Assembly: GCF_037042905.1 (NCBI RefSeq)
Contig: NC_087251.1
Location: 30,134,001 to 30,198,000 of the forward strand
Source: Lytechinus pictus
Taxonomy: Eukaryota
DNA length: 64,000 nt
Direction of reading: 5' to 3'
The notes under the pieces were generated by a model that was given only the letters and a program-made list of their open reading frames with translations, searched no databases and was not told the DNA's origin. This document shows, piece after piece, positions 53,901-56,900 of the stretch; positions within the stretch are counted from its first letter, which is position 1, and each line of letters begins with the position of its first letter. The translations under genes were made by a program, and so were the position numbers.

Positions 53901-56900
53901 AAAAAGAAGGCTTCAAAAATATAAAGTGTCTGGACACCCGATCCCCCATCCTACTTTTGTCTTTAGTAAGGCTAAAAATAAGGCTAACTAATGGCAGTAC
54001 AGGGCGTTGTGGCGTGCGCCTGTAATCCAAGCTGTGGGGAAGTTACAAATTGATGCAGAGGTTCGAGCCCTAGTCACGTCTTTCGGATGGTGACGTTACA
54101 GGTCGGTCCCAGACGTAAATAAATATCTGATTGATACACATCTGACAAAACTCAAATACACACACACACACAGCGTCTATGGTGACGTTAAAGGTCGGTC
54201 CCAGACGTAAATAATCATATCTGATTGTTACACGTCTGACAAAACTCAAATACACACACACAGCGTCTATGGAGACGGTGCAGCACCCTCCTTGATTACA
54301 GTACACCTAAATTTTGCTTTTTTACTGGGTTAAAGAGATCAGGGTAGAAATGATAAAGATGAATTAAATTTAAAATACTTTCAACTTACCACCTTTCTGA
54401 AAAATATGCCAGAAAATAGCGAATTTTGATTTGATGACAAACAGATCAGGATCAGCCAGGGTTCTTCTTCGATCATCGTCAGTGCACCTAATGTCCTACA
54501 GCTGAGCGTACGAACGTTCTAGCCAGCAGCCAATCCGCTTGGGTGTCCGTACTTTCATCTGTAGCTGACGGCGAACGAAGAAGAACCTGGCTGATCCCGA
54601 TCTGTTTTGTCATCAAAATTCATGATTTTCCACTCCAGCATATTTTTCAGAAAGGTGGTAAACTGATTGTATTTGATATAAATTTATCTTTATTATTTCT
54701 TCCTTTTTCCCCGTTTATTTTTATTTGTATTCTCTGGCTGTCAATGAAATAGTCTACCCCTAGGTCATGTTCATCATCCTTTTATCTAGATTTGCTTTTG
54801 CTTCCCATGGATTTATTCTGGAACCAGATGATGTTTACATTAAGTGCACTCAATTAGGATTGATATTTGACAAGTGAATGAACTTTATTAGAATTTGTGT
54901 GTGGAAAAACACACAAAGTAGATCCTACAATAGTATGAAACAATCTTAGTCCTCTTTCTCGGAGTGGCGCCAAGTCATATATTGTAAACAGCTTGATTTT
55001 TTGAAGGTTTTCTAAAGATTTGTAGGCTTAAAATTTAAAACCAAAAATTAAATTAGGATCAGTATTCCAAAGGTTCCTAAGTCTGAAACTAAAAAGGGAC
55101 TTTTTTCTGGAACGTTTGAATGTCAGAAAATAAAACTGTAATTATTGACATTTGTTAGGGCCTATTCCGAAAATTTAGGTCAGGTAATATTTGTGACAAA
55201 TGCATGTATAAAATTGAATTTAAAGCAGATACAAACCAATATTGCCATCTCAAGTCCTCAACCACTCATACCTGGCCAGTTTCCTGACCCATAATCCTAG
55301 TGTAGTCTAGTTATACGGACCCACTTGAATGATAACATTTTAACAATAATTATTTTACTAAGTAGCAAAACAATTACTTTTCCTCTCAGAACATTTTAGT
55401 TTCTCTATACAGTGCGTCCCACAAAAAACGAAACCGAGATTTATCGATGATTTATCATAACTTAATCGCAAATACAATAGACAAATGATCTACCATTTTA
55501 AAGCTTAGAATCTCCTCTTTCATCTGAAACTACTTAGATTATTTCTCATTCACGCATGAGTGGGCAAAAACAATTTGAAAAGGGGATACCAAAAAGTCAC
55601 TTGGCAGGCCGTATTTGGGTTTTAAAAAGAAAACCACATTTTTAAAAAGTTCAATATCTGCTCTTTAAATTGATACCTCAATTACAGAAAATGGTCAAGA
55701 AATAACAAAGTTCTGGTTTTTTGAAATAAGGCTTGAATTTCAATAATTTCATAAAATGAAGAGGTTTTACAGGCTAGCGTTCAAACTCACTCGACACTCC
55801 GTTTTGTTGACGATCAGCCATGCATTAAGTCTTTTGTTACCGTGCGATAGCTTCTGTGGGAAACCGGTGAAAACACGTTTATCTAATGAAATTATGGAAA
55901 TACAAGCATTGTTTCGAAGGATCATAACTTTTTTACTACTTGACCATTTTCTGTGATTTAGGTATCAAAGAAAAGAGAAGATATTGAACTTTTTAGTAAT
56001 GTGATTTTCTTTTTGAAATTCAGATACCCCCCGCCAAATGAGTTTTTGGCATCCTTTCTTTGAATTGTTTTTGCTCAATCATGCGTGAATGAGGAATAAT
56101 CTAAGTAATACCAGATGAAAGAGGAGATTCTAAGCTTTACATTGGTAGGTCATTTGTCTATCTTATTTATGATTAAGTTATGATAAATCATCGCTAAATC
56201 TCGGTTTCATTTTTTCTGGGACACACTGTACAAATACAGTTATAGGTCTTCTCTGTAGTATAAGTAGATATCTGAAAACATATTTTAAGACTGCATTTAT
56301 AACACACAGTCAATGAGAGATCACACACAGTTCACTCCTCCTTAAAGTACCAGAATATTTTTCGAAATCTATATAGTTTCAGTAGAGGATGTACATGGTG
56401 AATATTTTTTTAGAGAAGCCTGGAATGAGCTAGATCTTGTCTTGGGTATTTACTCTTTCCATTGCGTTTCTTTTTTCAGAATTTGATTGGCTTTCAAATC
56501 AGAGCTTTGATCCAACAATAGCTCAGGCGAGAGCTCATCGTCATGGAAAAAGTGATGTCTTCAGTTACAAGGAGCAAGAAAATACTGCCACTGTTCATCA
56601 CCAAAGAGAGAGCAGCCATTCACATCAAAGTCTTTCAACCATAGTACCTCCACATCCTATGGTCAAGGAAGAACTCCCAGTCATACCTGATCAAAATGAT
56701 TCCTTAGGTACAGCATCTGAAAGCATAAAAGTTGAGCAGGATAAAGGTTATGAACCTTTACATGCAGATCAGTCTGATTCTGATTCAGTTTCCAGTGATG
56801 AACACTTCTATGGGAACGATGAGGACGTTGCTTCAAAAGTGAAGAAAGAGAATGTGCCTTTTGACTTGCCAGCCAGGGACAAGAAGCAGAGAAGTAAAGA

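Follow-up and report, generated by a model that had tools for sequence, protein, structure and literature searches.

The window analysed here, a 64-kb stretch of DNA from the sea urchin Lytechinus pictus, is AT-rich animal DNA with many repeats. It carries the gene NRDE2. A tblastn search with the L. pictus NRDE2-like protein P0003 gave six stretches: residues 1–39 match at 44974–45093 (80%), and the protein from residue 29 onward is found from 56476, with the other five stretches at 94–98%. The exon at 59969–60991 is 96% identical to the NRDE2-like protein of L. pictus and 47% identical to that of Diadema. Since the first 39 residues and the rest of P0003 are separated in this way, the short interspersed element described below likely lies, in the sense direction, within intron 1 of NRDE2, an intron of ∼11 kb that we place at ∼45090–56470. 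The same inferred intron holds an 8-kb foldback-like element (45373–53409), whose arms at 45373–46645 and 52079–53409 are inverted copies with 88% identity; its inner inverted arms (47557–48290 and 50892–51626) are made of 23- and 49-bp tandem units. An imperfect palindrome of 361 bp (54343–54703, MITE-like, 71% self-complementary) is situated 80 bp downstream of the short element. Rfam matches at 53330–53480 were set aside as an ACGT-rich tandem repeat.

Several other features were seen in the window. An uninterrupted frame of 343 aa (5355–6386, + strand) has no Pfam match above the cut-off; a comparison of language-model features puts it closest to a mostly eukaryotic cluster that has no name (0.98) and also near clusters with 18–21% Bacillus_HBL members and near HlyE (0.93–0.95). 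Judged by these model features, the frame possibly encodes a sea urchin pore-forming protein of the ClyA type. A probable exon at 31976–32530 (+ strand) has a weak match to DUF4619 (E 5e-4, below the cut-off). Three copies of a dispersed repeat (13092–14553, 36166–37117 and 57778–58899), made of tandem units of 163 and 192 bp, are 70–92% alike. Among the 24 sequencing runs listed in a comparison with the window the best word share was 0.25, and the listed runs included no RNA runs. A bacterial promoter scan, a method irrelevant to Pol III, gave chance-level output over the window.

The element proper occupies 53999–54172 on the + strand (174 bp) and consists of a 46-base 7SL-like head followed by a junction, a B box, a body and a (CA)n tail (Table 1). 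Its size and its head-body-tail layout agree with the definition of a SINE in SINEBase (<1 kb). The original prediction, made from the letters of the sequence, had described one Alu-like SINE spanning 53997..54272. The range holds the 174-bp element, but the part from 54179 to 54262 is a second, headless unit that the prediction left undescribed. The (CA)n tail was found where it had been placed; the non-7SL body is present as well, although the string quoted for it mixed the two units at one base. It had also counted a single head-bearing copy, and indeed none occurs in the 64-kb window beyond the one at 53999. No run of four or more Ts interrupts 54046–54311.

Table 1. Features of the 7SL-headed element and its immediate setting (positions in the window)
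Feature	Position	Strand	Basis or remark
Head resembling the 5′ (small Alu) domain of 7SL/SRP RNA	53999..54044	+	46 nt; Rfam RF00017 positions 1–45
Position of the 7SL A box inside the head	54003–54012	+	8 of 10 bases equal to the human box as given in the accessible part of PMC7245038 (by eye)
Junction zone joining the 7SL piece to the older SINE, with the breakpoint somewhere within	54045..54059	+	Identity counts against the SRP model and L001–L003
Pol III B-box-like 11-mer	54060..54070	+	Exact register with the B-box-like motifs of L001–L003
Body common to the wider SINE-like family	54071..54157	+	84–88% identity to L001–L003 over 90–111 bp
Stretch within the body resembling the start of the Deu domain	54073–54114	+	∼30 of 42 columns (by eye)
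3′ hairpin, broken in the head-bearing copy	54110–54144	+	Folding z 0.27
(CA)n tail of the head-bearing copy	54158..54172	+	Read from the sequence
Second, headless unit (3′ half of body plus tail)	54179..54262	+	Tandem period 92–94
Intact 15-pair hairpin of the second unit	54202–54238	+	−15.7 kcal/mol, z −4.45
First downstream runs of at least four Ts, possible Pol III stop	54312..54323	+	T4 at 54312, T6 at 54318
Host gene NRDE2 (context, outside the element)	44974..63999	+	tblastn with the L. pictus NRDE2-like protein P0003

A 7SL-like 5′ end had been proposed at this site, and the Rfam search bears it out: over 53950–54300 Metazoa_SRP was the best of six matches (53999–54132, 26.6 bits, E 3e-5), the next E-value being 0.37. 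The score of 26.6 bits for the head falls well short of the Rfam gathering score for this model, which is 70. Counted by eye on the Rfam alignment, the head is identical to Metazoa_SRP at 35 of 45 bases over model positions 1–45, with one inserted base, and at 28 of 31 over positions 4–34; for the latter match a uniform-base estimate gives a chance of ∼1e-7 per 64-kb window. The head starts where a SINE head should start and ends before the B box. As in the described 7SL SINEs, the 5′ end is of 7SL type with its fold retained (RF00017 positions 1–45, E 3e-5); 12 of the 14 model pairs in the head domain are not marked as broken and two are (by eye). Folded alone, the head is no more stable than its shuffles (z 0.47), in a minimum free energy calculation that cannot show loop-loop pairing.

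One could suppose that the head descends from a tRNA-type head by decay, or is a stray vertebrate Alu, and resembles 7SL by chance or through contamination. We find this hardly credible. The score under the gathering cut-off would be in keeping with it, and the silence of the tRNA finders (ARAGORN reported no tRNA in the window and Rfam none at 53950–54300) counts for little, because both tools also overlook the heads of three related loci, L001–L003, which were found by searching metagenome contigs for a 20-base motif of the body. Against such a reading stand the identity at 28 of 31 positions, the lack of any BLAST alignment between the element and L001, L002 or L003 upstream of the B box, and the location of the piece in contiguous sea-urchin-like DNA, joined to a body that is not that of Alu. 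The 10 bases preceding the head (53989–53998) are identical to positions 511–520 of L002, upstream of the A-box-like motif of that locus; the shared 10-mer is probably due to chance and could reflect a target preference.

Past model position 45 the likeness to 7SL collapses, with one identical base out of 15 over positions 46–60 (by eye). Weaker 7SL similarity had been said to continue through to the B box; instead it ends at ∼54044. The Rfam alignment is poor beyond position 45, and the element shows no 3′ strand of 7SL (nt 267–299): the stretch that the search forced onto model positions 261–299 is body sequence shared with the relatives whose heads are not of 7SL type. The label ‘Alu-like’ thus suits the 5′ domain only, since the element lacks the 3′ strand of the Alu domain, which every described 7SL SINE retains.

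What follows the head is found elsewhere with other heads. All three relatives align with the element at 84–88% identity over 90–111 bp, and with no other part of the window. Outside the search motif, at 54071–54089, they are identical to the element at 15, 17 and 18 of 19 bases. The B box at 54060–54070 agrees with L001, L002 and L003, in the same register, at 7, 9 and 6 of 11 bases, and the junction at 54045–54059, compared ungapped, at 6, 3 and 3 of 15. Rfam detects no SRP match in any of the three at E-values up to 5. Their heads differ among themselves and carry A-box-like motifs in two loci and B-box-like motifs in all three. Neither ARAGORN nor Rfam shows a tRNA in these heads, so that the label ‘tRNA-type’ is used for them on the strength of the box motifs.

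A canonical B box had been part of the original prediction. There is indeed a B-box-like 11-mer, but a derivation from 7SL was rejected, since the motif shares its register with the B boxes found in the non-7SL relatives; for the same reason we assign it to the donor SINE, to which it is likely better attributed. We infer from the alignments that B box, body and tail were inherited from an older tRNA-type SINE whose front was taken by the 7SL piece, with the junction falling in 54045–54059. The head of 7SL type is genuine, and the element is chimeric.

The body after the B box matches ∼30 of 42 columns in the opening line of the Deu domain of AmnSINE1 (by eye, against the accessible Figure S4 of PMC7245038). 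In these ∼40 bases the element is like the DeuSINEs, including SINE2-3_SP of Strongylocentrotus purpuratus (PMC4824008, PMC3747384; compared by its description in the parts of these papers available). Unlike them, it is without the remaining 90–100 bases of a Deu domain that measures ∼130–140 nt. Membership in the DeuSINEs or MetaSINEs was rejected: by eye the body resembles the Deu start alone, and does not resemble the Meta domain. Tails vary within the wider SINE-like family, because L003 ends in (ACCA)n in place of the (CA)n seen in L002. Scans with body motifs in viral and prokaryote collections gave no matches (four of four scans), as expected for animal DNA.

The 3′ part of the body can form a hairpin. 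Among four copies folded, two have z-scores of about −4.5, namely the second unit (−4.45) and L002 (−4.53), with none of 200 shuffles as good in either case; L001 gives −1.26 and the head-bearing copy 0.27. In the head-bearing copy the hairpin is broken by a 2-base deletion and one substitution, and this copy is therefore probably not a source element. An alignment of five sequences showed no compensatory changes in the 21 predicted hairpin pairs. L003 has a 9-base internal duplication in its hairpin (∼320–375).

Compared with the first, the second unit has a shorter tail, three substitutions and a single indel of 2 bases. It is bounded by an 18-bp direct repeat (54165–54182 and 54255–54272) that is made up of tail, six flank bases and four bases in common with the body. 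This arrangement fits either a local duplication via microhomology or a separate 5′-truncated insertion into the (CA)n tail of the first copy. An Alu-like dimer was considered and rejected, the second unit being headless and its bounding repeat taking in the flank.

No target-site duplication of the head-bearing copy was detected, in agreement with the original prediction: the longest word common to the two flanks is 4 bp, a length reached by 94–98% of 2000 random pairs. CR1/L2-driven elements are often without such duplications. A LINE end sharing the 3′ tail of the element was sought in the 64-kb window and none was found. In the available part of PMC3747384, stem-loops at the 3′ end are given as typical for stringently paired LINEs and SINEs, and CR1 or L2 as the partners of the sea urchin SINEs listed. 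By analogy, the partner LINE would be of the CR1/L2 type.

The match to Rfam, the NRDE2 exon and the body shared with the relatives support what had been proposed, namely that an invertebrate element combines a head derived from 7SL with a body of SINE type. Given that the 46-base 7SL head ends before the B box, while B box, body and tail occur with other heads, we regard it as quite probable that the chimera is a decayed member of a sea urchin family of SINEs, one founded when a 7SL piece took the place of the front part of a tRNA-type head. Exchanges of this kind have precedents in the hagfish SINE1-1_EBu, as far as the consulted part of PMC7245038 describes it, and in the 5S heads on Deu-SINEs (accessible parts of PMC4824008 and PMC3747384). 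The counts that speak against a family, one head-bearing copy in the window and a 7SL head in none of the three relatives, would equally be expected if a template switch at this site had fused a short 7SL retro-fragment with a single tRNA-type SINE copy and the product had never been amplified; we judge such a one-off event very improbable.

SINEs derived from 7SL are extremely rare. According to the available portions of Kojima 2020 (PMC7245038) and Kosushkin et al. 2026 (PMC13023118), they are recorded solely from supraprimates, hagfish and shrew mole, that is, from three origins, all vertebrate, with the same central deletion each time, and all of them carry both 5′ and 3′ parts of 7SL. The list of known cases offered with the original prediction (Euarchontoglires and hagfish) was incomplete, leaving out Urop of the shrew mole (PMC13023118, as excerpted). 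The central deletion leaves the 7SL 5′ end to nt ∼63–96 with its B box, together with the 3′ strand (nt 267–299); the element has neither that B box nor that strand. SINEBase requires a stretch of 60 nt or more with an identity of 60% or higher to 7SL, tRNA or 5S RNA, and the SRP homology here spans 46 nt. Its definition further includes 100 or more dispersed copies per genome and an internal Pol III promoter; the window has one head-bearing copy, with box-like motifs at 54003–54012 and 54060–54070. We have not filed the element with the described 7SL SINEs because it lacks their central deletion and falls short of the 60-nt rule, as that rule is given in the consulted part of PMC3531059. Even so, it may function as the members of that class do.

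One close parallel is SINE1-1_EBu (Ebu1-1) of the hagfish Eptatretus burgeri, which likewise combines a 7SL head with an older tRNA-SINE, a LINE-type 3′ end and a microsatellite in place of poly(A). Ebu1-1, though, has the 5′ 96 nt of 7SL with their own B box and a 44-nt 3′ strand, an RTE-derived tail, (AAC)n and target-site duplications of ∼17 bp (both sets of features from the accessible text of PMC7245038), whereas the present element has 46 nt of 7SL only, the B box of the donor SINE, (CA)n, no visible duplication and an invertebrate host. In Alu, B1 and Urop, too, the 5′ domain of 7SL comes first, A box included; they consist of centrally deleted 7SL with 5′ and 3′ parts retained, are poly(A)-tailed and are driven by L1 (PMC13023118, parts available), while our element lacks both the 3′ part and poly(A) and is non-7SL over two thirds of its length. 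The Tu elements of types II and III from tree shrew, in which the leftmost unit may descend from both 7SL and tRNA, possibly offer a precedent for a hybrid head; they are mammalian, multimeric and of the Alu/B1 lineage, unlike the element, and are likened to it by the description in the accessible part of PMC13023118. In length and in the part of 7SL used, the head equals the engineered 46-nt minimal Alu domain of SA46/AY46, which are laboratory constructs with a CMV promoter, human L1 ORF2p and a poly(A) tract (PMC12199147, as excerpted).

It is also conceivable, if unlikely, that the family is real and already catalogued, whether in Repbase or Dfam as a tRNA-SINE or under an unknown label, or in older publications as a small RNA of sea urchins. 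An older study reportedly described small poly(A)+ RNAs from sea urchin embryos whose 5′ end is like that of SRP RNA, which would favour this possibility, as would the at least eight SINE names that Repbase has for S. purpuratus, known here by name alone. The literature points the other way. All the sea urchin SINEs named in the available parts of PMC4758252, PMC4824008, PMC3747384 and PMC5804259 are tRNA-headed, and the accessible text of the 2026 paper by the SINEBase authors (PMC13023118) names solely supraprimates, hagfish and shrew mole. 7SL is not mentioned in PMC8615465, and the term spRNA was not met in the literature searched. No invertebrate 7SL SINE was found in that literature, which was covered mostly at listing level and apart from Repbase, Dfam, the SINEBase supplements and the SURF1 paper.

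For a family of 7SL-headed chimeras the following cycle can be proposed. The A box of 7SL and the tRNA-type B box inherited from the donor SINE, which lie 57 bases apart, would serve Pol III as a hybrid promoter, and the predicted transcript would run to the downstream T run at 54312–54323. The 5′ domain RNA may then fold, bind SRP9/14 and dock on ribosomes, by analogy of length with the 46-nt 5′ Alu domain, which, in the part of PMC12199147 available, suffices for SRP9/14 binding and for retrotransposition in HeLa cells. A CR1/L2-type LINE would recognize the 3′ hairpin and the (CA)n tail, and the copy would be inserted by target-primed reverse transcription.

How much of the 7SL piece matters in such a cycle is a matter of weighing. 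The 7SL piece could supply only a fresh A box and a transcription start, the family being the same and recognition proceeding via the 3′ hairpin without SRP9/14; this is possible, though we are inclined to doubt it. The hairpin and the microsatellite tail suggest stringent recognition, for which competition for poly(A) is not needed, and the missing 3′ strand of the Alu domain, the two broken pairs among 14 and the absence of a folding signal in the head would all be compatible with a mere promoter. The match, on the other hand, runs ∼30 bases past the A box and stops at the edge of the SRP9/14-binding 5′ domain, and the hagfish SINE1-1_EBu, with a LINE-derived tail too, retains the Alu fold (PMC7245038, as excerpted). 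We give somewhat less than even odds to the idea that the element represents the first invertebrate 7SL SINE family and a natural 46-nt minimal Alu domain: a tRNA-SINE would have taken up the SRP9/14 module, retained its B box and hairpin and reached over a thousand copies, as ribosome docking via SRP9/14 may help even those elements for which L1 and poly(A) are dispensable.

If true, an echinoderm 7SL SINE built from the 5′ domain alone would mean that the central deletion is not the sole route to 7SL SINEs. It would also make it testable whether SRP9/14 binding or merely the promoter lies behind the success of 7SL heads. The sister elements L001–L003, with the same body and non-7SL heads, could act as controls, and sea urchin embryos would be an easy system for tests of transcription and binding.
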